Shown here one piece after another: positions 3,835 to 52,821 of a DNA stretch of 64,000 nucleotides (the stretch's first letter is position 1; each line of letters opens with the position of its first letter). The translations under genes and the position numbers were made by a program. This DNA comes from Candidatus Parcubacteria bacterium (GTDB taxonomy: Bacteria; Patescibacteriota; Minisyncoccia; Minisyncoccales; JAGMDC01): contig JAGMAD010000003.1 of NCBI GenBank assembly GCA_023130975.1, forward strand, positions 129,692-193,691, in the 5' to 3' direction. The notes under the pieces were generated by a model that saw only the letters and a program-made list of their open reading frames with translations, ran no database searches and had not been told where the DNA came from.

Positions 3835-4599
3835 ATGACACGGATTATTTCCATCGCCAATCAGAAAGGCGGAGTTGGAAAATCAAATGTTGCAGTTAAT
3901 CTTCCGGTTTTTTTAAGCGCTAAGGGAAAGAAAGTTTTGTTAGTGGATATGGATCCTCAGGCAAATGCTACTTTGAGTTTAGGCATTAACTGCCGCAATT
4001 TGCCTCTTTCTATTTATAATGTTTTAATGGACCAGATTACTCCTTCAGCTATTATCAGGAAGACCTCGTTTTTTGGATATGATATTATGCCGGCTTCTCC
4101 GGATTTGGCTGGTGCTACTGTAGAATTAGTAGAAGCAAAAAATCGAGAGTTCAAATTAGCTCAAATTTTAAAAAAAGTTGAAGAACCATACGATTTTATT
4201 ATCATTGATTCTCCTCCGAGTTTAGGAATTCTAACCCTTAATACCTTAGTTGGTTCCAAAGAGGTTTTAATTCCGGTTCAATGCGAATATTTGGCTTTGG
4301 AAGGATTAGGACAACTTTTAGATACAATTGCCTTAGTGAAAAATAATCTTGGTCAAGATTTAAAAATTGCCGGCGCTCTATTAACAATGTATAATAGAAA
4401 AAATCGTCTTTCCAGGGACGTAGCTAAAGAAGTTAGAAGGAATTTTCCTGGCTATGTCTTTGACAGCGTTATTCCCAGAAGCGTGGCTTTAGCTGAAGCG
4501 CCCAAATATGGCCAGACCATTTTACAATATGCTCCCGGCTCTCAAGCAGCCAAGGCCTATAGAGAATTAGCCGAAGAACTTATCAACAGAAATGACTAA
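3835..4599 (+). CDS. parA: ParA/Soj chromosome-partitioning ATPase
   Basis: N-terminal KGGVGKS deviant Walker A and ParA-like length. Start placed at the ATG downstream of the tRNA. Confidence 0.85.
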   Translation: MTRIISIANQKGGVGKSNVAVNLPVFLSAKGKKVLLVDMDPQANATLSLGINCRNLPLSIYNVLMDQITPSAIIRKTSFFGYDIMPASPDLAGATVELVEAKNREFKLAQILKKVEEPYDFIIIDSPPSLGILTLNTLVGSKEVLIPVQCEYLALEGLGQLLDTIALVKNNLGQDLKIAGALLTMYNRKNRLSRDVAKEVRRNFPGYVFDSVIPRSVALAEAPKYGQTILQYAPGSQAAKAYRELAEELINRND

Positions 4600-4724
4600 T
4601 AACTAATTCCTAATTACTAATCAAATCCCAATGACCAATGACTAAATGACTAAAAACTTTTAGACATTAGACATTTTGGAATTAGACATTGATTAGAAAT
4701 TAGACATTAGAAATTAGAAATTCC
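4600..4724. repeat. direct-repeat (iteron-like) spacer between parA and parB
   Basis: There are 3 copies of AATGAC(C/T)AA and 4 copies of TTAGACATT plus AGAAATT repeats. parA and parB are usually adjacent. Confidence 0.4.
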
Positions 4725-5622: not shown

Positions 5623-7407
5623 TCAATCCCAAGTGGCTTTAACAATTTTTTGAGGCCATTTTTCTTTTGTTCTTTTTAAATTAAGACAATCAGCCCTATG
5701 AATAGTGGCTCCTTTATTTTTAGTGATATAGCCAATAATTTTATCTCCGGGTTGAGGTGAACAGCATTTTGCTATATTTGTTAACATTCCTTTTTGTCCG
5801 GCTAAAGAAACAGTGCCTCTTTTTAAAGCTTTTTCTTCCTTTAGCTTCTTTTCTTTCCTAACCGGTATAGGTATGAAAGAAAGAATTTTAGGTAAAGTAG
5901 TTTTTTTCTCTAGTTGTTCTGCTGGACTAAACCATTTTTTAATTCTAATTCTGGCTAAGCTAGTTTTAACAAAATCCAGCCAATCTCTGGAAGGAGTTCT
6001 CTTTTTATTGGTGATAATTTCTACCAAATCACCGCTGTTTAGTCCCTGATTCAGACGGGCTATTTTTCCATTAACTTTTGCTTCTTGGCAGTGATTTCCC
6101 ACTTCTGTGTGAATGGCATAAGCAAAATCTACTGGGCAGGACTTTTCCGGCAAATCAATAATATCGCCTTTCGGAGTAAAAACGAAAACTCTCTGACCGA
6201 AAAAATCAATTTTCAAGGACTCTAAATATCTATCTGGAGAAAATTTCTTGGTTTCTTCCTGCCATTCTCTTAGCTGCTTTAACCAGTAAAGTTTACGTTC
6301 CGGCGGCTTACTGACCAATCTTTTAATATAAGTTTTAAGGCCTTTTTGCTCTGAATAATACCAATGGGCAGCAATACCAAATTCTGCTTCTCTATGCATC
6401 TGAGGAGTTCTGATTTGAATTTCAATAATTTTACTTTTTAATCCATTCGGGCATTTATTAGTTAATAAATCAGAACAAGAAACAGTACTATGCAGAGAAC
6501 GATAGCCATTTGGTTTTGGCCGAGAGATATAATCTTTAGTTCGTCCAGGAAAAGGTTTCCAGATTTTATGAATCACTCCTAATGTCTTGTAACACTCTTC
6601 TACATTTTTAACAATTATTCTTAAGGCAACTAAATCATAAATTTTGTCTAAATCATTATTGTATCTCTTCAGTTTTTGATAAAGAGAGTAATAATGTTTT
6701 GCTCGTGAGTGGATTTCTATTGTCTCAACCCCTTCTTTCTTTAGTTCTTTTTTCACAATGGGTACGATTTTTTCAATGTAATTTTCTCGTTCTTCATACT
6801 TATCTTTAACTCGAGAAATGAGCTGTTGGTATTCATTCGGATATACTATTGGGAAAGCAGCGTCTTCTAATCTGCCTTTGATTTCACCAATTCCTAAACG
6901 ATACGCCAAAGGAGCATAGATTTCAATTGTCTCTAAGGCAATTCTTTTAGCTTTATCTTCTCTTAGATAATTCAGGGTTTTTAAATTATGAAGTCGGTCG
7001 CACAATTTAATTAAGATAACCCGAACATCCTTTGCCATAGCTAAAAAAAGTTTTCTGAAATTCTCTGCTTGTCTTTCAACGCCGTGATATTTAATTTTTC
7101 CCAATTTACTAACCCCCTCTACTAAAAAAGCAATCTCTTTGCCAAATTCTTTTTTAATTTCTTCGTCAGTAACATCAGTGTCATCTGGTACATCATGAAG
7201 CAGGCCAGCAGCTATTGTGATTGGCTCTAATTTTATTTTTTTCAAACAAAGAGCAGTCTCTAAGGGATGAATAATAAAATCATCTCCAGACGCTCTTTTT
7301 TGATTACGATGGGCTTTTTCAGCAAATTGATAGGCCTTTTGAATTAATTTCGGCTCAACACTGCCTTTTATAATTTTTTGAACTATCTTTTGCTTTTGAG
7401 TTGACAT
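5623..7407 (-). CDS. rel: (p)ppGpp synthetase/hydrolase Rel/SpoT lacking the C-terminal ACT domain
   Basis: HD domain (HRNQKRASGDDFIIHPLE), synthetase domain, TGS (VFVFTPKGDIIDLP) and CC motif. It stops before the ACT/RRM domain. Confidence 0.85.
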   Translation of the reverse strand: MSTQKQKIVQKIIKGSVEPKLIQKAYQFAEKAHRNQKRASGDDFIIHPLETALCLKKIKLEPITIAAGLLHDVPDDTDVTDEEIKKEFGKEIAFLVEGVSKLGKIKYHGVERQAENFRKLFLAMAKDVRVILIKLCDRLHNLKTLNYLREDKAKRIALETIEIYAPLAYRLGIGEIKGRLEDAAFPIVYPNEYQQLISRVKDKYEERENYIEKIVPIVKKELKKEGVETIEIHSRAKHYYSLYQKLKRYNNDLDKIYDLVALRIIVKNVEECYKTLGVIHKIWKPFPGRTKDYISRPKPNGYRSLHSTVSCSDLLTNKCPNGLKSKIIEIQIRTPQMHREAEFGIAAHWYYSEQKGLKTYIKRLVSKPPERKLYWLKQLREWQEETKKFSPDRYLESLKIDFFGQRVFVFTPKGDIIDLPEKSCPVDFAYAIHTEVGNHCQEAKVNGKIARLNQGLNSGDLVEIITNKKRTPSRDWLDFVKTSLARIRIKKWFSPAEQLEKKTTLPKILSFIPIPVRKEKKLKEEKALKRGTVSLAGQKGMLTNIAKCCSPQPGDKIIGYITKNKGATIHRADCLNLKRTKEKWPQKIVKATWD

Positions 7408-7540
7408 ATAATTAATATTATATCATAACCAAAAAATTAGGTTTTATCAAGGAGAAAAACGGCTTTAAATAAAGTGAGAAGTGTTGTATGATCAAAGTAG
7501 AAAGGTCGTTGAATCGTAATCTATAATTTTTTAAAAAAAA

Positions 7541-7963
7541 ATGGCAAAAATTCTTATAACTTCAAATGATTCTGATTTAAATTCTTCTGTCTCAGCGGTT
7601 TTTGGAAGATGTCCTTATTTTTTGATAGTTGATGAAAAAGGAAAGTTAGAGAAAGCTATTCCTAATACTGGGGTTCAGGCAGTAAGAGGCGCTGGGATTG
7701 CTGCTGCTCAAACAGTAGTAAGCCAAGGAGCAACAGTAGTTATTACTGGAAATGTCGGACCTAATGCTTTTGCGGTTTTACAGCAATCAGGAGTTAAACT
7801 CTATAATGGAGTAGGAATGACTGCTAAAGAAGCTTTAGAGAGTTTTAAAGAGAATAAATTGACAGAGATTACTACATCAGCTGGCCGTTTTGGCGGTAGA
7901 GGGGCTGGCCAAGGTCCTGGAAGAGGAATGGGCGGCGGCATGGGAGGAGGAAGACGAGTTTAA
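7541..7963 (+). CDS. NifX/NifB-like dinitrogenase FeMo-cofactor family protein (PF02579-like) with a Gly/Arg-rich tail
   Basis: FGRCPYFLIVD ... VVITGNVGPNAF matches the family consensus. The C-terminus is GRFGGRGAGQGPGRGMGGGMGGGRRV. Confidence 0.65.
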   Translation: MAKILITSNDSDLNSSVSAVFGRCPYFLIVDEKGKLEKAIPNTGVQAVRGAGIAAAQTVVSQGATVVITGNVGPNAFAVLQQSGVKLYNGVGMTAKEALESFKENKLTEITTSAGRFGGRGAGQGPGRGMGGGMGGGRRV

Positions 7964-7987
7964 AATAATTTTTAATCTTAACTTTTT

Positions 7988-8821
7988 ATGAAACAAGTCG
8001 CCATCACAGGTGGAAAAGGAGGAACTGGAAAATCAACAGTAGCTATTTTACTGGCTAATAAATTGATAAAGAAGGACAAAATAGTCCTTCTTTGCGATTG
8101 TGATGTAGAGTGTCCAAATGACTATTTACTAATAGGTGAGAAATTGAAAAAGCCGGTTAGAAAAGTATTTGCTGAGTTTCCCAAATTAAACAAAAATAAG
8201 TGCCAGAAATGCGGACTTTGCTCCAAGACCTGCCAAAGCAACGCTATCTTCCAAGCTCCGGGAAAATATCCAGTCTTTATTAAAGATTTATGTTCTGCCT
8301 GCGGTGCTTGCTGGGCTGTTTGTCCTTATAGTGCAATTACACCTAAAAAAGAAGAAGTTGGAAAAATATACCTTAATAAACTCAAAGCCACAACTCAAAG
8401 CTCAAAACTATTTTATTTAATAACTGGAGTGGCTAAGCCGGGATTAGAAGAAACAGGGCCGGTTGTTATCCAGGTTAAAGAATTTGCTTTGGATTTTGCC
8501 AGAAAAATAAAAGCAGATTATCTTTTATTTGATACTGCGGCTGGCATCCATTGTCCAGTCATCAGCGCTTTATTGGGCTGCGATTTTGCTTATGCTGTTA
8601 CAGAACCAACACCAATGGGCGCTTATGATTTAAATTTAATTTTGGACTTGTGTAAAAAACTTAAAATACCAGCTAAAGTAATTATAAATCAAGCAGATTT
8701 AGGAGATAAAAAGGAAATTAAAAAAATTGCCAGAAAACACGAGACCAGAATAGTAAAAGAAATTCCTTATTCAAAAGAAATAGTTGATGCCTATTCTCAG
8801 GGCAGATTAAATAAATTATGA
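7988..8821 (+). CDS. MinD-superfamily P-loop ATPase with inserted 2x[4Fe-4S] ferredoxin domain (COG1149-like)
   Basis: GGKGGTGKST Walker A, CDCDVECPN, CQKCGLCSKTC and CSACGACWAVCP cluster motifs. Confidence 0.7.
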   Translation: MKQVAITGGKGGTGKSTVAILLANKLIKKDKIVLLCDCDVECPNDYLLIGEKLKKPVRKVFAEFPKLNKNKCQKCGLCSKTCQSNAIFQAPGKYPVFIKDLCSACGACWAVCPYSAITPKKEEVGKIYLNKLKATTQSSKLFYLITGVAKPGLEETGPVVIQVKEFALDFARKIKADYLLFDTAAGIHCPVISALLGCDFAYAVTEPTPMGAYDLNLILDLCKKLKIPAKVIINQADLGDKKEIKKIARKHETRIVKEIPYSKEIVDAYSQGRLNKL

Positions 8822-9684
8822 AATTTCAATTAGTGGTTTCAGGAGGAAAAGGCGGGGTAGGGAAGTCAATGCTGTGTTCTGTTTTGGCCATGCTTTTTAG
8901 TAGAAAGAAAAAAGTAGTGGCTGTTGACTGTGATGTTGATGCACCGAATTTAGCAATATGGCTTAATGAAACAAGGAATTGGCAGAAAATTAAGAAGATT
9001 TCTACTTCATCTAAGGCAGTGGTTGATTATGGGAAATGTACTGGTTGCGGTTTGTGTGCAGAACACTGCCGATTTAATGCTATAAAAATGGAAAAAGGCA
9101 AGCCAGTAATAAATCCTTTTTTATGTGAGGGCTGTGCTGCTTGTGAAGTTATTTGTCCTCAAAATGCCATTAAATTAAAACCAGTGAAGAACGGTGAGAT
9201 AAAAGTTAAAAGAACAAGGCAGGGTTTTTTCTTAGTTTCTGGCCAACTTCTTCCTGGTGAAACCGGTTCTGGCAAGATAGTAACTGAAATTAAAAAAGAA
9301 GGAGAGAAATTTGAATATGATATAATGCTCATAGATTCAGCTCCAGGCACTGGTTGTCCAGTAATTGCTTCTCTACAAGGCGCTGACTTTGTTGTTTTGG
9401 TCACTGAACCAACTCCTTCCGGGTTTTCTGACCTAAATCGGGTCTTAGAGGTAGTAAATCATTTTAATATTCCTTATAATATAATAATCAACAAATGGGA
9501 CATTAATGCTGATTTGAGCAAGAGAATTGAAAAATGGGCTGGCAAAAGATTTCTGGGTAAAATTTCTTATGACAAGAATATATTTAAAGCCATTTCTAAT
9601 TTAACCCCGATTTTAGAAACAGATTTAAAGGCGAAAAAAGAGATTGAAGAAATTTATCAAGAATTGGTTAAGAGAATAAATTAG
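8818..9684 (+). CDS. second MinD-superfamily Fe-S ATPase paralog
   Basis: GGKGGVGKS, CDVDAPN, CTGCGLCAEHC and CEGCAACEVICP. Overlaps the upstream gene by 4 nt. Confidence 0.7.
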   Translation: MKFQLVVSGGKGGVGKSMLCSVLAMLFSRKKKVVAVDCDVDAPNLAIWLNETRNWQKIKKISTSSKAVVDYGKCTGCGLCAEHCRFNAIKMEKGKPVINPFLCEGCAACEVICPQNAIKLKPVKNGEIKVKRTRQGFFLVSGQLLPGETGSGKIVTEIKKEGEKFEYDIMLIDSAPGTGCPVIASLQGADFVVLVTEPTPSGFSDLNRVLEVVNHFNIPYNIIINKWDINADLSKRIEKWAGKRFLGKISYDKNIFKAISNLTPILETDLKAKKEIEEIYQELVKRIN

Positions 9685-9785
9685 GGCTTGACTATCTTTC
9701 TTGCTTAATTTAAGCTAAAATATAGTAAAGAAGAAAGGTCGAAGAAATCAAAATATAATTATTAATTTTAAATACAATTTTAATT

Positions 9786-9953
9786 ATGGCTGAGAAAATT
9801 ACTGCTTATTGCGTAAAATGTAAAGCAAAAAGAGAAATGAATGATCCAAAAGAAGTTACTATGAAAGGGAAAGGAGGAGCTAAAAGAAGGGCTATGACCG
9901 GTACTTGTCCAAAATGCGGGACAAAGATGTTCAGAATAATGGGGAATAAGTAA
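9786..9953 (+). CDS. 55-aa zinc-ribbon protein (CxxC...CxxC)
   Basis: MAEKITAYCVKCKAKREM...TGTCPKCGTKMFRIMGNK is below the ORF-track size cutoff. It is followed by a strong terminator. Confidence 0.5.
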   Translation: MAEKITAYCVKCKAKREMNDPKEVTMKGKGGAKRRAMTGTCPKCGTKMFRIMGNK

Positions 9954-9978
9954 AATTTTAGAATATTCTAGAATTTTT

Positions 9979-10016
9979 AGCCCAATGCCGCTGAAAGCGG
10001 CATTGGGCTATTATTT
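9979..10016 (+). terminator. intrinsic terminator (13-bp perfect stem)
   Basis: agcccaatgccgc-tgaaa-gcggcattgggct followed by a T-rich run. Confidence 0.6.
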
Positions 10017-10037
10017 AATTTGGGTTATCATTAAACA

Positions 10038-10901
10038 ATGAAAAGGTCTAAAAGTTTTGTTTCAGTAATATTGGGGCTGTTATTTTTAGTAAATGTTTTG
10101 GCTTGGATAGAAGTTTATAATTTGACTCAATCGCAGGTTCTGGAAGTAACTTTTTTCGATATAGGACAAGGAGATAGTATTTTTATCCAAACCCCTCAAA
10201 AGCATCAGATTTTAATTGACGGTGGACCTGATTCGACTATTTTAGAGAAATTAGCAGAAGAAATGCCTTTTTGGGATAGAACTATTGATTTAATAATTCT
10301 TACTCATCCGGAACATGACCACGTAGCCGGCTTACTCGAGGTTCTTAGAAGATATAAAGTAGAGCAGATTCTCTGGACCGGCATTAAACGGGATACAGCC
10401 GAATATAGAAAGTGGCAGGAGTTAATTAAGAAAGAAGAGACAGAGGGAGCAAAAATATTTATAGCCCAGTCCAATCAAAGAATATTAACGAGAAATGTTC
10501 TCGTTAATATTTTATCTCCATTTGAAAATTTGGAGGGTCAAGAAGTTAAAAACACCAATAATAGCTCTATTATTGCTCGTTTAGTTTTTGGAAACAATAC
10601 TTTTCTCTTTACTGGCGATGCTTACAAATCAGTAGAAAGAGAATTGATAGAAAGAGACATTACTTTAAATTCAGATGTTTTAAAAGTTGGGCATCATGGA
10701 AGCAAGACATCGTCTTCTGAAGAATTTATCCAAGCAGTCAGTCCGGAAATTGCTGTTATTCAATGCGGGAAAGATAATCCATATGGCCATCCTTATCCAG
10801 AAACATTGGCAACCCTTGAAAAATTTGGTATAAAGATTTTAAGAACAGACCAAAATGGAGACGTTAAGATTATTTCCGATAGAAATAATCTTAAATTTTA
10901 A
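10038..10901 (+). CDS. membrane-anchored metallo-beta-lactamase fold protein (ComEC/Rec2 C-terminal domain-like)
   Basis: N-terminal TM helix, HPEHDHVAG (HxHxDH) and VGHHGSKTS motifs. Confidence 0.55.
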   Translation: MKRSKSFVSVILGLLFLVNVLAWIEVYNLTQSQVLEVTFFDIGQGDSIFIQTPQKHQILIDGGPDSTILEKLAEEMPFWDRTIDLIILTHPEHDHVAGLLEVLRRYKVEQILWTGIKRDTAEYRKWQELIKKEETEGAKIFIAQSNQRILTRNVLVNILSPFENLEGQEVKNTNNSSIIARLVFGNNTFLFTGDAYKSVERELIERDITLNSDVLKVGHHGSKTSSSEEFIQAVSPEIAVIQCGKDNPYGHPYPETLATLEKFGIKILRTDQNGDVKIISDRNNLKF

Positions 10902-10905
10902 AATC

Positions 10906-11973
10906 ATGAATTTCCCAATTTTCAAGACAAAAATAAAGGACTTGAGCCGAAAGTTTAATTTAACCGACCCCATGGAACGTCAGAAGTATTTTCAATTAAA
11001 AGCCGGCAAAGAAATAGAAAAAATCAGGGAATACTTGAAAAACAAAACCTTTATTGTTTATCTTTTGGGAAAGAAAAATTCTGGCAAAGGAACTTATGCC
11101 AAAATGTTCGCTGAAATAGTATGGCCGGAAAAGATATTTCATTTTTCCATAGGAGATATGATAAGAGAAATAGATGGGGAATTAAAAGATAAAGAGAAAA
11201 AAAAGCAGTTGATTGATTTTCTGGAGAAAGGCTATCGCGGCTGGGTTTCAGTCAATAAAATAATTTCTATATTAGAATCAAGAAGTACAAAAGAATTACT
11301 GCCGACAGAACTGATTTTAACTTTGATCAAAAGAGAAATAGCTAAGCAAAAAGGAAAAGCCATCTTTATTGACGGCTTTCCCAGAGAATTAGACCAAATA
11401 GCTTTTTCTTTGTTTTTTCGGGATTTAGTTGACTATAGGCAAGACCCGGATATTTTTGTTTTAATTGATGTGCCGGAAAAAATCATTGATGAAAGAATAA
11501 AATGGAGAAGAGTTTGTCCGGTTTGCCAAACATCAAGAAATTTAAAACTATTACCTACTTCAAAAATCGGTTACAACAAGGATAAAAAAGAATTTTTTCT
11601 CATTTGTGATAATCCAAAATGTAAAGGAGCCAAGATGCTTCAGAAAGAGGGAGATGCATCAGGCATAGGGCCGATAAAGGAACGTTTAGGCATAGATGAG
11701 GCATTAATTAAAAAGGCATTTTCTTTATACGGCATTCCTAAAATTTTATTGAGAAATTCCGTTCCAGTGAACAAAGCCAAAGAATTTATTGATAACTATG
11801 AGGTTACTCCGGAATATAGTTATCAATGGGATGAAAAAGGAAAAAAAGTAAAAATAATTGAAAAGCCCTGGATTGTTCAGGATGAAAAAAATGTTTCTTC
11901 TTACAGCTTGATGCCTCCACCAGTAGTGTTGTCTTTTATCTCTCAAATGGTTGATGTTTTAAATCTTCGCTAA
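10906..11973 (+). CDS. adenylate-kinase-like NMP kinase paralog with N- and C-terminal extensions
   Basis: GKKNSGKGT P-loop, IDGFPRELDQ, and zinc LID CPVCQ..C..C. Start moved to the ATG at 10906 after the upstream stop. Confidence 0.5.
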   Translation: MNFPIFKTKIKDLSRKFNLTDPMERQKYFQLKAGKEIEKIREYLKNKTFIVYLLGKKNSGKGTYAKMFAEIVWPEKIFHFSIGDMIREIDGELKDKEKKKQLIDFLEKGYRGWVSVNKIISILESRSTKELLPTELILTLIKREIAKQKGKAIFIDGFPRELDQIAFSLFFRDLVDYRQDPDIFVLIDVPEKIIDERIKWRRVCPVCQTSRNLKLLPTSKIGYNKDKKEFFLICDNPKCKGAKMLQKEGDASGIGPIKERLGIDEALIKKAFSLYGIPKILLRNSVPVNKAKEFIDNYEVTPEYSYQWDEKGKKVKIIEKPWIVQDEKNVSSYSLMPPPVVLSFISQMVDVLNLR

Positions 11974-41085: not shown

Positions 41086-42000
41086 ATGAAAAAAATAGAT
41101 ATTAAGATTCCATTAGATGTTCCAAAAACAATGCGAAAAAAATATACTCAGAATTATCTGAATATAACGCATAATTCCGGCAGACTCATGCTTTTTGCCG
41201 GGGATCAAAAGATAGAACATTTGAATAAGGATTTTTATGGTGAAGGAATACATACTGATGATGCTAATCCAGAGCATCTTTTCCGAATTGCAAATAAAGC
41301 AAAAATCGGAGTCTTTGCTACACAACTTGGACTTATTGCCGAATATGGTGCTGATTATAAAAATATTCAGTATCTTGTAAAACTTAATTCAAAAACGAAT
41401 CTTATTAAAACAGAACAGAGGGATCCGTATAGTGGAAAAATTACTGCTCTTAATGAAGTTATTGAATTTCAGAAAAATTCTGGTTTAAAGATAGTTGCTG
41501 TTGGATATACAATTTATTTAGGGAGTGAATATGAAGTAGAAATGTTGAGAGATGCATCGCGAATGGTTTATGAAGCGCATAAAAATGGTCTTTTAACGGT
41601 TCTTTGGATATACCCGCGAGGAAAAGCAGTAAAAGATGAAAAAGATCCGCATTTAATTGCAGGCGCAACAGGTGTGGCTGCTTGTTTGGGTAGTGATTTT
41701 GTCAAAATTAATTATCCAAAAAAGGAAGGAGAAGAATCAAAAGAATTATTAAAAGAGGCGATTCAATCAGCAGGCAGAACAGGTGTTGTGTGTGCAGGTG
41801 GTTCTTCAATAGATGTTAAGGAATTTTTACAACGGTTGTATGATCAGATTGAGGTTGGAGCATGCGGAAATGCCACTGGAAGAAATATTCATCAAAAAGG
41901 ATTTAAAGAAGCAGTAGCAATGTGTAATGCAATTTACGCTATCACTGTTGAAAATAAAACAGTTGATGACGCTTTAAAAATTTATAATCAAACTACATAA
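41086..42000 (+). CDS. class I fructose-bisphosphate aldolase (DhnA/archaeal type)
   Basis: GSDFVKINYP-type Schiff-base lysine context and a TIM-barrel-like pattern. Confidence 0.5.
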   Translation: MKKIDIKIPLDVPKTMRKKYTQNYLNITHNSGRLMLFAGDQKIEHLNKDFYGEGIHTDDANPEHLFRIANKAKIGVFATQLGLIAEYGADYKNIQYLVKLNSKTNLIKTEQRDPYSGKITALNEVIEFQKNSGLKIVAVGYTIYLGSEYEVEMLRDASRMVYEAHKNGLLTVLWIYPRGKAVKDEKDPHLIAGATGVAACLGSDFVKINYPKKEGEESKELLKEAIQSAGRTGVVCAGGSSIDVKEFLQRLYDQIEVGACGNATGRNIHQKGFKEAVAMCNAIYAITVENKTVDDALKIYNQTT

Positions 42001-42077
42001 AAAAGATATAATAAAAAGTTTGATTACAAGGTTCTGCCGAAGGCAGGTTTTTACAATCGAAGCGTCTAATAGTTTTC

Positions 42078-42107
42078 TTGACTTTTTTGCTTATATTCTG
42101 ATAAAAT
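42078..42107 (+). promoter_or_regulatory. promoter TTGACT-18-TAAAAT for the ferredoxin gene
   Basis: -35 at 42078-42083, -10 at 42102-42107, ATG at 42119. Confidence 0.4.
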
Positions 42108-42118
42108 ATACAAGCATT

Positions 42119-42334
42119 ATGGTAAAAATTATTTTAGATAAATCAAAGTGTGTTGGATGCGGGGCATGCCAGGCGATCTGCCCGAAGTATTTTGAATTGG
42201 GTCAAGATGGCAAATCTAAACTTAAAAAAGGAAAGAACAACTCAGATAAAGAGAAATTAGAAATAGATGAAATTGATTGCGCCCAAGAAGCAGTAGAATC
42301 CTGTCCAGCCCAGTGTATCCACATTGAAAATTAA
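42119..42334 (+). CDS. small ferredoxin (single Fe-S cluster)
   Basis: CVGCGACQAICP ... CP motifs; 71 aa. The ORF-track start at 42020 runs through a repeat unit. Confidence 0.65.
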   Translation: MVKIILDKSKCVGCGACQAICPKYFELGQDGKSKLKKGKNNSDKEKLEIDEIDCAQEAVESCPAQCIHIEN

Positions 42335-50181: not shown

Positions 50182-50283
50182 AAAGATGAAAGAAATAAGG
50201 AAAGTTCTTTGAAAATTTTTAGATTAAGAATTGAGTAAATTTAATTGGTTTTTTAGAGTTGTCCCGATTTTATTTGAGAGTTC

Positions 50284-50315
<32 letters not shown>

Positions 50316-50707
50316 GATAAGGCATGCAAGTCGAGGGGTCACCTTCGGGTGGCACCGGCAAACGGGTTAGTAACACGTGGATACATACCCTAAAGACTCG
50401 TATAACTCGGAGAAATCCGAGCTAATTCGAGATAGTCTGGTAGTCTATTTTTGGAAGTCAACTATAAGAATTTTTAATTTTCAATTTCTAATTTTTATTT
50501 AATTTCTAATTTTCAATGTTTAAAAAGCAACCCTACGGGGAATCCCGAACTTCATTCGGTCTAGAAATCATTAAAAATTTATTAAAAATTAAGAATTAGA
50601 AATTAGAAATTTTCTGCGTATTTAATAATAGATAAAGTTGATTTTTAGGAATAGGCTACCAGTAAAGGTTATACTTTGTATTTCCGCTTTGGGACTGGTC
50701 CGCGGCT

Positions 50708-50743
<36 letters not shown>

Positions 50744-52018
50744 GATGACGAGTAGGGGGCATGAGAGTGTGTTCCCCAACAATGGTACTGAGAACGGACC
50801 ATACTCCTACGGGAGGCAGCAGTCGAGAATATTGGGCAATGGGCGAAAGCCTGACCCAGCGACGCCGCGTGCGGGAAGAAGGTCTTCGGATTGTAAACCG
50901 CTTTTATTAAGGAACAATCCGCCAGTCGGCGGATGAGCGTACTTGATGAATAAGGAGCCGCTAATCACGTGCCAGAAGCGTCGGTAATACGTGAGCTCCA
51001 AGCGTTATCCGGATTTATTGGGCGTAAAGCGTCCGTAGGCGGTTTGAAAAGTCTTTGGTTAAATCCTAGGGCTTAACCTTTGGACTGTCAAAGATACTTT
51101 CAGACTAGAGGGTGTTAGAGGCTGATGGAACGGTCGGTGTAGGGGTGAAATCCGTTGATATCGACCGGAACACCGAAAGCGAAGGCATTCAGCTAGTGCA
51201 ACCCTGACGCTGAGGGACGAAAGCGTGGGTAGCGAATGGGATTAGATACCCCAGTAGTCCACGCTGTAAACTATGGACACTAGCTATTGGTAGTGTCGAC
51301 CCTATCAGTGGCGAAGCTAACGCGTTAAGTGTCCCGCCTGGGAAGTACGAGCGCAAGCTTAAAACTCAAAGGAATAGACGGGGACTCACACAAGCGGTGG
51401 ATCATGTGGCTCAATTCGACGATAAACGAAGAACCTCACCAGGGCTTGACATGCTAGTGAAATCCCGACGAAAGTTGGGACTACCCACAAGGACACTAGC
51501 ACAGGTGCTGCATGGTTGTCGTCAGCAGGTGTCGTGAGACGCTCCTTTTAATAGGGAAACCTGCGCAACCCTTGCCCTATGTTTTACTTGTCATAGGGGA
51601 CTGCCCGGGATAACTGGGAGGAAGGTGAGGATAACGCCAAATCAGCATGGCCCTTTGATGCCCTGGGCTGCACACATGATACAATGGCCGGTACAATGGG
51701 CTGCTTAACCGCAAGGCGAAGCAAATCCCTTAAAGCCGGTCCCAGTTCGGATTGAGGTCTGCAACTCGACCTCATGAAGCCGGAATCGCTAGTAATCGCC
51801 AATCAGCTATGTGGCGATGAATATGTTCCTGAGTCTTGTACTCACTGCCCGTCACACCAAGAGAGCTGGCAGTACCCGAAACCCCCCACCACTTTTCGTG
51901 AAGATATTTAGATTAAGAAGAATTTTTGAAAAAGTCTATTTTAAATTCTTTTGACGGTTTATAATTCATGAAAAGTGGTGGGGGGCTAAGGTAAGGTCAG
52001 TAATATGGGTGAAGTCGT

Positions 52019-52821
52019 AGATGTAATCTACTTGTTGCGACTCTTGAAAGGCAACTTTCAGGAAAAAACTTGGCTATATGCTGGAACATCTGTGTTATAA
52101 TAGAGTAATATGAGTAAAAGTTTATACGCAGACAATCAGCAGGGAAGTCTCCGCCAGCTGGCGGATGACCCCTCAGAGACTACACGCCGAGCCCCTCTTT
52201 CTAAAAGAGAAATTCAATCTTATTTTCTTGGAGCTATACATGATGGAACATTTAGTAGTAATCAAAGATTTCGAATTTCACAGAAAGGTACCCAATGGCT
52301 TAAATTTTTACAAAAACTTTTTGGCAAACTCGGTTACAATTCATGGATTTATAAAGAAGGTAAAAACAGAAAAGTTTATGTGTTAGAAACTTTAGCAGAT
52401 TTTTTAGATTTCAGATTTGATCCTTCGCGATTAAATACAAAAGAAGAAAAGATTGGTTACATAAAAGGATTTTTCGATGCCGAAGGTGGCATTCCTAGAG
52501 ATCACAAAGCAAGATTTTATATTCAGTTGACCCAGAATGATGAAGAAAAGCTCAAAAAATTAAAAGTAATGCTTAGTGATTTAGGAATAAAAACAGGAAA
52601 AATTCATAACCCAAGCCAAAAAGTAGATCCTGATTATTGGAGAATGTATGTTTTAGCAGGTTCACAAAAAACATTCGTAGAAAAAATAGGATCATGGCAT
52701 CCAAGAAAGATAAGAACCTTGAATCAAAGATTCAAGAACCTTGATTCCTTCGGGATTAAAAATTTTAGAAAAGAGGGTGAAGATATAGTCCATGCTCTAT
52801 AGCGATATAGGGACAAATATG
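52019..52821 (+). mobile_element. group I-type intron in the 16S gene (between E. coli-equivalent U1498 and A1499)
   Basis: The 5' exon ends ...GAAGTCGT, the intron ends with G, and the 3' exon resumes AACAAGG. The intron carries a LAGLIDADG ORF. Confidence 0.65.
52110..52802 (+). CDS. LAGLIDADG homing endonuclease (intron-encoded)
   Basis: Two LAGLIDADG-like motifs, FLGAIHDGTF and IKGFFDAEGGI. Confidence 0.7.
   Translation: MSKSLYADNQQGSLRQLADDPSETTRRAPLSKREIQSYFLGAIHDGTFSSNQRFRISQKGTQWLKFLQKLFGKLGYNSWIYKEGKNRKVYVLETLADFLDFRFDPSRLNTKEEKIGYIKGFFDAEGGIPRDHKARFYIQLTQNDEEKLKKLKVMLSDLGIKTGKIHNPSQKVDPDYWRMYVLAGSQKTFVEKIGSWHPRKIRTLNQRFKNLDSFGIKNFRKEGEDIVHAL

Follow-up and report, generated by a model that had tools for sequence, protein, structure and literature searches.

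A small gene cluster of a Candidatus Parcubacteria bacterium bears both on the physiological role of the Desulfovibrio 'orange protein' (ORP) complex and on the loading and unloading of IssA-type iron-sulfur stores in anaerobes. The cluster is located in a 64,000-nucleotide stretch of contig JAGMAD010000003.1 (hereafter called the window). It codes for a PF02579-family protein with a Gly/Arg-rich C-terminal tail, two MinD-fold ATPases with inserted ferredoxin motifs (ATPase 1 and ATPase 2) and a DUF5679 zinc-ribbon protein. An initial annotation, made from the DNA letters, had described the four genes as one unit. It regarded the gene trio in it as functionally uncharacterised, typical of methanogens and other anaerobes, and notable in a genome resembling those of the candidate phyla radiation (CPR). 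Judging from gene content, we find that the first three genes are a compact version of a known anaerobe cluster, of which this locus is an ordinary example.

A conserved gene set of anaerobes

The product of the first gene matches PF02579 over residues 14-103 with 75.9 bits (Pfam cut-off 26.3, E = 3.2e-21). Each of the two ATPases combines the Pfam CbiA/MinD/ParA domain with two Fer4 motifs, and they share 37% identity (E = 1e-43), as expected of the tandem paralogues initially reported. The fourth protein matches DUF5679 (PF18930) with 44.9 bits (cut-off 27, E = 1.3e-11) and harbours the pairs C9xxC12 and C41xxC44. These hidden Markov model (HMM) searches thus agree with the families first proposed. 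The four open reading frames (ORFs), all on the forward strand, the motifs and the terminator are also present as described, and the peptides FGRCPYFLIVD, ITGNVGPNAF and GRFGGRGAGQGPGRGMGGGMGGGRRV are present in the translation of the PF02579 protein.

The PF02579 gene ends 24 nucleotides (nt) before the ATPase 1 gene, and the two ATPase genes share an ATGA overlap (8818-8821), through which ATPase 2 is predicted to be translationally coupled to ATPase 1. This spacing and overlap indicate that the three genes form one tight operon, which we call the trio. The DUF5679 gene follows after a gap of 101 nt. As judged from protein identities, the attribution to CPR, as first suspected, is sound: the identical deposited entry of the PF02579 protein is labelled 'Candidatus Parcubacteria bacterium', and the closest loci belong to Nealsonbacteria (90% identity) and Minisyncoccales (88%). 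The nearest-relative loci keep the full block ParA-ParB-RelA / PF02579-ATPase-ATPase-DUF5679-MBL-ADK-like, in which MBL stands for a metallo-beta-lactamase-type hydrolase and ADK for adenylate kinase.

A scan limited to one genome per species yielded 80 loci with relatives of the PF02579 protein, including loci of CPR lineages, Bathyarchaeia, methanogens, Thermoplasmatota, Zixibacteria, Clostridium, Syntrophales and Anaerolineae, so that the description as typical of methanogens and other anaerobes holds. We considered as informative the 54 loci with at least 3.5 kb of sequence downstream of the tailed PF02579 gene. At least two Fe-S ATPase genes lie beside that gene in 47 of them and at least one in 52, which supports the conservation of the genomic context. 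The gene set of these loci, hereafter called ORP-like, is that of the ORP cluster of Desulfovibrio.

More than 100 protein clusters share 65-91% identity with ATPase 2, and those with named sources are mostly from CPR; conservation is much tighter for this protein than for the PF02579 protein. ORP-like loci are therefore widespread in anaerobes, common in CPR and routinely annotated, and the presence of one in a CPR genome is not the rarity that it had seemed.

Beyond this core, a second PF02579 gene was found in 54 of the 80 loci, and recurrent additional neighbours code for an Mrp/NBP35 ATPase, a CDF-PF02579 fusion protein (in CPR loci), DUF5320 proteins, small proteins with a Gly/Arg N-terminus and a Cys-rich ribbon, and thioredoxin. 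The CDF fusion consists of a cation-efflux transporter (PF01545 and ZT_dimer) with a C-terminal PF02579 domain (positions 6465-7709 of scan locus L002, 5426-6643 of L083 and 9545-10405 of L085) and appears to link membrane metal transport directly to a cluster-binding domain. In other Parcubacteria, SufC, SufBD and UDG genes are found directly upstream of the ATPase 2 orthologue and/or the DUF5679 gene (892-5347 of L087, and also in L094 and L096). These other neighbours of ORP-like loci point to metal and Fe-S handling. Genes for the CDF-PF02579 fusion, DUF5320, small Cys protein, Mrp, second PF02579 protein, SufC, SufBD, UDG and thioredoxin are all absent from the 64-kb window, which makes the trio a minimal version of these clusters.

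The PF02579 protein and its cationic tail

In the AlphaFold2 model of the PF02579 protein, the globular domain is predicted with a pLDDT of ~91. The tail, with values of 48-60 and no secondary structure, is predicted to be disordered, residues 113-140 being unstructured. It comprises 30 residues, including one Pro and a single Phe as its sole aromatic residue and lacking Trp. Its Arg residues are found in GRG, GRF or GRR contexts, with zero RGG tripeptides. The DNA coding for the tail has a GC content of 61% in a window of 34% GC, which argues for selection on composition.

The tail had been regarded as unusual, which is not borne out by its relatives. A strict test (minimum tail length of 12 residues, Gly content of 30% or more, net charge of +3 or more) is passed by 85 of the 120 closest homologues. 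Almost all of the rest have either a shorter tail of the GxGRG type or a stretch rich in Gly that leads into a coiled coil, annotated DUF5320. By these comparisons, the tail is a family hallmark, typical for the clade and conserved in composition across bacteria and archaea.

Similar Gly/Arg/Met-rich low-complexity segments were observed in three protein families of one and the same cluster, at the C-terminus of PF02579 proteins and at the N-termini of DUF5320 coiled-coil proteins and of the small Cys-rich ribbon proteins (positions 6870-7100 of L063, 4762-4974 of L083, and 4359-4700 and 4727-4930 of L085). Fusions of PF02579 and DUF5320 also exist (proteins P0030, P0040 and P0042). From its recurrence, the segment would seem to be a functional module that these proteins share.

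A characterised PF02579 protein with such a tail is IssA of Pyrococcus furiosus (PF2025, also called SipA), to which the paper on MrpORP pointed (PMC6345978). IssA consists of an IPR003731/PF02579 domain and an unstructured, cationic Gly-rich tail, and it stores iron and sulfur as anionic thioferrate (PMC5524996). Electrostatic binding of thioferrate has been proposed for the tail; [4Fe-4S] ferredoxin can be rebuilt from the store, and IssA assembles into very large particles (PMC5524996). Vaccaro et al. (2017, PMC5524996) delimited the IssA clade by a pI of 9 or higher, fewer than 5 Cys residues and a Gly content of 20% or more over the last 40 residues. The same study named IssX an uncharacterised, non-thermophilic clade with similar tails.

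The window protein shares with IssA and IssX the PF02579 domain followed by a disordered cationic Gly-rich tail, and it falls within all three limits of the IssA clade, with a pI of 9.84, one Cys residue and 14 Gly residues in its last 40 (35%). The second PF02579 paralogues of the related loci differ from this basic, tailed protein in being acidic (median pI 5.85) and untailed, and none of the 62 collected falls within those limits.

The closest solved relatives of the window protein are the structural-genomics proteins MTH1175 (1eo1, E = 2.9e-23) and TM1290 (1rdu, E = 2.2e-19), which match its whole globular domain, followed by the D. gigas ORP (2wfb, E = 6.6e-14). MTH1175, which has little or no tail, served as the template for the model of the globular domain of IssA (PMC5524996). 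Kinship with the IssA clade is thus suggested by composition, with the rank of MTH1175 as the best PDB relative, ahead of ORP, as a proxy for phylogenetic placement.

Two MinD-fold ATPases with ferredoxin inserts

Both ATPases contain an insert of ~65 residues between switch I and the next core strand, which harbours the ferredoxin motifs. The initial annotation had assigned to each a double CxxCxxCxxxCP module; two ferredoxin motifs are indeed present in each, but only the second ends in CP, the first ending in CQ in ATPase 1 and in CR in ATPase 2. Alignments showed that both paralogues keep two predicted [4Fe-4S] sites (eight ferredoxin Cys) and all catalytic residues of dimer-dependent ATPases, namely a deviant Walker A motif with the signature lysine (GKGGxGKS), the switch I DxD motif and the Walker B Asp. 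These catalytic and ferredoxin residues are 96-100% conserved over 44 ATPase-1-type and 74 ATPase-2-type orthologues of bacteria and archaea. Among the former, the signature and Walker A Lys residues, the DxD motif, the Walker B Asp, the eight ferredoxin Cys and Cys189 are conserved at 100%, and Cys38 at 98%.

A modestly new feature is the apparently universal conservation of two additional Cys residues in the switch regions of the same orthologues, one in the switch I 'D-C-D' motif (93-98%) and the other seven residues after the Walker B Asp (99-100%). An hhalign comparison with NifH, for which an approximate sequence was used, covers residues 9-51 only (P-loop and switch I) and pairs the D-C-D Cys with the conserved, non-ligand Cys38 of NifH. 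Beyond the end of that alignment at residue 51, the switch II Cys (Cys180, Walker B Asp +7) stands in what we take to be the register of NifH Cys132, which together with Cys97 makes up the two cluster ligands of each NifH subunit. Speculatively, the switch II Cys might hold a cluster that bridges two subunits as in NifH.

The AlphaFold2 model of ATPase 2 (pLDDT 91.4) has MinD, FleN, FlhG and ParA as its nearest solved folds (Foldseek E-values down to 5.7e-13), with CooC, BchL, Cfd1, ApbC, HypB and NifH further down the list. The ATPases share with MinD, FleN, FlhG and ParA the SIMIBI P-loop core, the deviant Walker A motif with its signature Lys, the switch I DxD motif and the Walker B Asp. 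They differ from them by the ferredoxin insert, which none of the solved structures among the fold matches carries, by the two additional Cys residues, and by their remoteness (14-18% identity, TM-score ~0.6). ATPase 2 also has an extra C-terminal amphipathic helix (residues 271-287), which ATPase 1 lacks.

Both proteins score below all MinD and ParA cut-offs of NCBIfam, including those of the MinD equivalog models TIGR01968 (35-48 bits, cut-off 212.9) and TIGR01969 (37-43 bits, cut-off 201.75). Like NifH, BchL, CfbC and the Mrp/NBP35/ApbC proteins, they belong to the Fe-S-bearing SIMIBI ATPases. However, they lack the CxxC carrier motif of the Mrp/NBP35 type, CxxC motifs being confined to the ferredoxin insert. 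The NifH and Mrp family models match the N-terminal P-loop region only, far below their curated cut-offs: PF10609 (Mrp/NBP35/ApbC) aligns partially, with residues 3-91 and 4-54, and the NifH model TIGR01287 scores 30 bits for a cut-off of 394. By these scores, the ATPases are not members of the NifH/BchL family.

Relationship to the ORP complex

In Desulfovibrio, Orp3 and Orp4 are MinD-like proteins with two [4Fe-4S] motifs each. They co-purify with Orp8, a member of PF02579, and obtain Fe-S from MrpORP, in which Mrp/NBP35 is fused to PF02579 (PMC6345978). Expression of the orp genes is confined to low redox potential (PMC8359166). Compared by described architecture, ORP and the window share two paralogous MinD-like ATPases with two [4Fe-4S] motifs each and a small PF02579 protein, and both kinds are restricted to anaerobes. 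The window differs from ORP by the absence of MrpORP (Orp9), of an Orp5-type small Fe-S protein, of a second PF02579 gene and of OrpR/sigma-54 control. With regard to MrpORP, model NF041136 gives partial matches only (26-48 bits vs 450), and the window has no Mrp-type gene besides parA. No TGGCAC-N5-TTGC element of the sigma-54 type is visible at positions 7408-7540.

A further parallel comes from Palaeococcus, in which two adjacent genes annotated 'CobQ with iron-sulfur binding domain' rank, like that of SipA/IssA, with the genes most strongly induced by sulfur (PMC6981617). If they belong to the same ATPase family, as their annotation suggests, IssA and such ATPases would be co-regulated there too. 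The description of the trio as functionally uncharacterised was thus half true: it fits the trio, but Orp3-Orp4-Orp8 and Pyrococcus IssA are studied relatives.

The ORP papers are silent on tails and the IssA paper on ATPases. Our finding that tailed, IssA-like proteins are almost always encoded together with Orp3/Orp4-type ATPases is modestly new, and it joins two literatures that barely cite each other. A literature search returned no paper linking CPR bacteria with IssA or ORP and nothing relevant for COG1149.

Proposed function and alternatives

With moderate confidence, we propose that the trio is a minimal ORP/IssA-type module for the handling of inorganic Fe-S (metal-sulfide) material under anaerobic conditions. 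The globular domain of the PF02579 protein would bind an Fe-S species that is anionic, either a small cluster or one resembling thioferrate, and the disordered, cationic Gly/Arg tail would hold it there. By analogy with the co-purification of Orp3, Orp4 and Orp8, ATPase 1 and ATPase 2 would pair as a heterodimer and dock in this form on the PF02579 protein. ATP-driven dimerisation would be coupled to electron transfer through the ferredoxin inserts (four [4Fe-4S] clusters in the heterodimer), and the ATPases would in this way bring about either the loading of the bound Fe-S material or its reductive release towards client proteins. The operon would be read from a sigma-70-like promoter with a CPR-specific AAAGGTCG element (see below), and DUF5679 would be a co-regulated neighbour rather than a structural part of the module. 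The more specific version, with thioferrate as the bound species and its reductive release, is less probable.

Several points weigh against this proposal. The mechanism would be carried over to CPR members and to IssX-type proteins from their relatives, and the action of the ATPases on the PF02579 protein is extrapolated from co-purification in one organism and from synteny. The window tail has 30 residues with one aromatic residue, no Trp and no Pro-rich linker, whereas that of IssA has ~70 residues with a Pro-rich linker and many aromatic (Trp) residues; shorter tails do occur within the IssA clade (PMC5524996). The window protein keeps a conserved Cys24 in its globular domain, whereas IssA has Cys in its tail and the P. 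furiosus protein lacks Cys24; in addition, the window organism is a mesophile, unlike the host of IssA. The homologous D. gigas ORP non-covalently binds an anionic [S2MoS2CuS2MoS2] cluster rather than Fe-S (PMC6345978), and the authors of the ORP studies proposed a role in cell division, the complex being called 'putatively involved in cell division' (PMC6345978, PMC8359166). Finally, no SUF, Mrp or CDF fusion genes are found in the 64-kb window.

The D. gigas cluster suggests that the PF02579 protein might instead bind a Mo/W or Mo-Cu thiometallate, with the ATPases serving Mo/W-sulfide trafficking and not Fe-S storage. ORP is a significant relative of the window protein, and a cationic tail would stabilise any anionic thiometallate. 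Nevertheless, the window protein is far closer to MTH1175, which belongs to the IssA clade, and has the composition of that clade, and neither the window nor the related loci examined showed any genes for Mo/W transport or cofactors; we therefore regard this alternative as quite unlikely. By name, both in Pfam and as the NCBI product ('NifB/NifX family'), the protein evokes a maturation protein of the iron-molybdenum cofactor of the NifX/NafY type. The chances of this are negligible, given that neither NifX nor NafY structures are among the PDB matches at E < 0.01, where MTH1175, TM1290 and ORP are present, and that the window and the related loci examined are devoid of nif genes. With the NifH score of the ATPases far below its cut-off as well, we rejected a nitrogenase-related role.

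The initial annotation had read the tail as RGG-like, suggestive of RNA binding or phase separation. The tail is indeed disordered, Gly/Arg-rich and strongly basic, and the very large particles of IssA make higher-order assembly plausible. It is devoid of RGG tripeptides, though, and is clade-wide and tied to Fe-S gene neighbourhoods with no conserved RNA-related gene nearby, and in IssA, the relative with experimental data, the proposed ligand of the tail is an inorganic polyanion. An RGG-type module is accordingly not the best reading and appears very improbable.

As for the ATPases, they might be MinD-like positioning or division proteins, the module then acting in division or polar organisation. 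Their best structural matches, the wording of the ORP literature, the adjacent parA-parB genes and the C-terminal helix of ATPase 2, reminiscent of the MinD-type membrane-targeting helix noted for Orp3 and Orp4 (PMC6345978), all favour this possibility. Yet true MinD lacks the Fe-S insert, the NCBIfam MinD score (47.7 bits) is far from the cut-off of 212.9, ATPase 1 has no such helix, and the adjacency to parAB is limited to close relatives. No min genes are found in the neighbourhood of the trio, and the conserved neighbours of such loci are Fe-S and metal genes, not minC/minE or fts. A role in division thus seems improbable to us, and we favour the handling of Fe-S material. The three-gene form, which reduced CPR genomes have kept highly conserved, points to what is probably the functional core, a PF02579 protein with its tail and an ATPase heterodimer; this pointer is modestly new, and the form offers a simple system for reconstitution.

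DUF5679 and a shared promoter element

The zinc ribbon had been thought to complete the unit. In the eight kinds of genomic contexts sampled for DUF5679, its gene directly follows an Fe-S ATPase gene in two, those of the window type (L001, L081) and of L087, with the order SufC-SufBD-UDG-ATPase2-DUF5679-ADK in the latter. It precedes an MBL hydrolase or nucleotide kinase gene in five of the eight, and the order DUF5679-MBL-ADK-like-L28-M50-S12-S7-EF-G of the window corresponds to this MBL/kinase backbone of the other DUF5679 contexts. DUF5679 was not within reach in any other CPR ORP-like locus of the scan. Taken together, these data indicate that it is not a conserved component of the module, and its gene apparently belongs to a different syntenic backbone from that of the trio. 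Its best 120 of 659 homologues are 72-91% identical over the 55 residues, and those with named sources are mostly from CPR; such conservation suggests a role of its own. A relationship with the small Gly/Arg and Cys-ribbon proteins of ORP-like clusters was considered, but the matches are insignificant (E = 0.05-5) and we do not claim it.

The trio and DUF5679 are linked in another way. The 8-mer AAAGGTCG is present in only two copies in the window, before the PF02579 gene and before the DUF5679 gene, each followed by a perfect TATAAT box. A one-mismatch scan of the window yielded no further credible site. The composite AAGGTCG-N10-15-TAWAAT likewise occurs twice in the window and in none of 100 shuffles, and the trio promoter scored 10/12 in a promoter scan. 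The position of AAAGGTCG is that of a -35 box or a class II activator site. Its presence at both sites indicates that DUF5679 has its own predicted promoter and is probably co-regulated with the trio. As no terminator separates the two, transcription might also continue from the trio into DUF5679.

In 21 non-redundant CPR sequences, 15 of 16 occurrences of AAAGGTCG are located 20-60 nt upstream of an ORF start (6% expected; binomial p ~7e-18, a value inflated by the shared ancestry of some sites and by the choice of loci). The element precedes the PF02579 gene in the window and in L001 (and in L081 with one mismatch), DUF5320 as the first gene of ORP-like clusters in L003, L034 and L085, DUF5679 in six lineages, thioredoxin inside the cluster of L083, Hsp20 at the head of that of L023, and a few other genes. 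The sites are at positions 5962 and 8192 of L001, 5348 of L003, 5438 of L034, 4315 of L085, 7453 of L083, 4913 of L023, 3952 of L087, 3970 of L094 and 3972 of L096. The genes behind AAAGGTCG-N10-14-TATAAT-like boxes are non-homologous. An alignment of the regions upstream of DUF5679 in ten contexts, including two without an upstream ATPase gene, revealed a conserved AAAGGTCGAA ~45 nt before the start codon. Outside CPR, 70 loci contain 21 copies of the 8-mer, none of them followed by a -10-like box.

On this evidence, the composite of AAAGGTCG and TATAAT is apparently CPR-specific, and it marks a candidate small stress/redox regulon in CPR. That a CPR-specific element links the operon to DUF5679, Hsp20 and thioredoxin is modestly new and places it among few candidate CPR regulons; a literature search on the motif returned nothing relevant. 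These new points leave the classification unchanged, the locus being ordinary in a widespread anaerobe family.

One may go further and consider the tailed PF02579 proteins and the Orp3/Orp4-type ATPases as the halves of one ancient, ATP- and electron-driven iron-sulfide store and dispenser, a 'ferritin for Fe-S' of which the CPR trio would be the minimal form. In CPR, the trio would then belong with DUF5679, Hsp20 and thioredoxin to a small stress/redox regulon defined by AAAGGTCG-N12-TATAAT, and DUF5679 might be a metal- or redox-sensing recogniser of the element, for which it is a candidate because its own promoter carries the element most consistently. We see this combined view as rather unlikely as a whole.

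Features of the locus and other genes of the window

The coordinates of the features are collected in Table 1. The perfect palindrome GCTTAATTTAAGC has variants in L081 (GCTTCATTTAAGC) and L087 (GCTTAAATTAAGC); its loop is too small for an RNA hairpin, and it may therefore be a protein-binding site. The predicted fold of positions 9954-10030, which includes the terminator, has an energy of -33.7 kcal/mol (z = -7.06 relative to shuffles).

Table 1. Coordinates of the features in and around the trio, numbered from the first nucleotide of the window
Feature	Position	Strand	Evidence or details
Trio promoter-like region	7498..7527	+	AAAGGTCG 7501-7508, 13 nt, perfect TATAAT 7522-7527, ATG 7541
PF02579 protein gene, 140 aa	7541..7963	+	ORF, Pfam; globular domain residues 1-110
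Cationic Gly/Arg tail, residues 111-140	7871..7960	+	
ATPase 1 gene, 277 aa	7988..8821	+	ORF, Pfam CbiA and Fer4
ATPase 2 gene, 288 aa	8818..9684	+	ORF, Pfam CbiA/MinD/ParA and two Fer4
Palindrome GCTTAATTTAAGC	9703..9715		Between ATPase 2 stop codon and DUF5679 promoter
DUF5679 promoter-like region	9734..9759	+	AAAGGTCG 9734-9741, 12 nt, perfect TATAAT 9754-9759
DUF5679 Cys4 zinc-ribbon gene, 55 aa	9786..9953	+	ORF, Pfam PF18930
Intrinsic terminator	9978..10010	+	15-bp stem, 9 GC pairs, T-rich run; closes both transcription units

An antisense ORF at 7801-7941 (reverse strand, 46 residues, Pro-rich) mirrors the GGN codons for Gly of the tail and was discarded as an artefact. Downstream of DUF5679, the adenylate-kinase-like ORF (10855-11973) codes for 372 residues with kinase homology from approximately residue 76. 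The called ORF shares 47 nt with the MBL gene, and its start may be mis-set; the relatives L081, L087 and L098 keep a long form of the protein (355-365 residues).

A gene for a single-cluster ferredoxin (Fer4_15, E = 1.8e-17) is found at 41978-42331, between those for a DeoC aldolase and ribosomal protein L25, and its product is a possible Fe-S client or electron partner of the trio. Lastly, the 16S rRNA gene (50270-52037) has 1768 nt for a model of 1533 positions, corresponding to insertion(s) of ~235 nt; 16S insertions are common in CPR bacteria.

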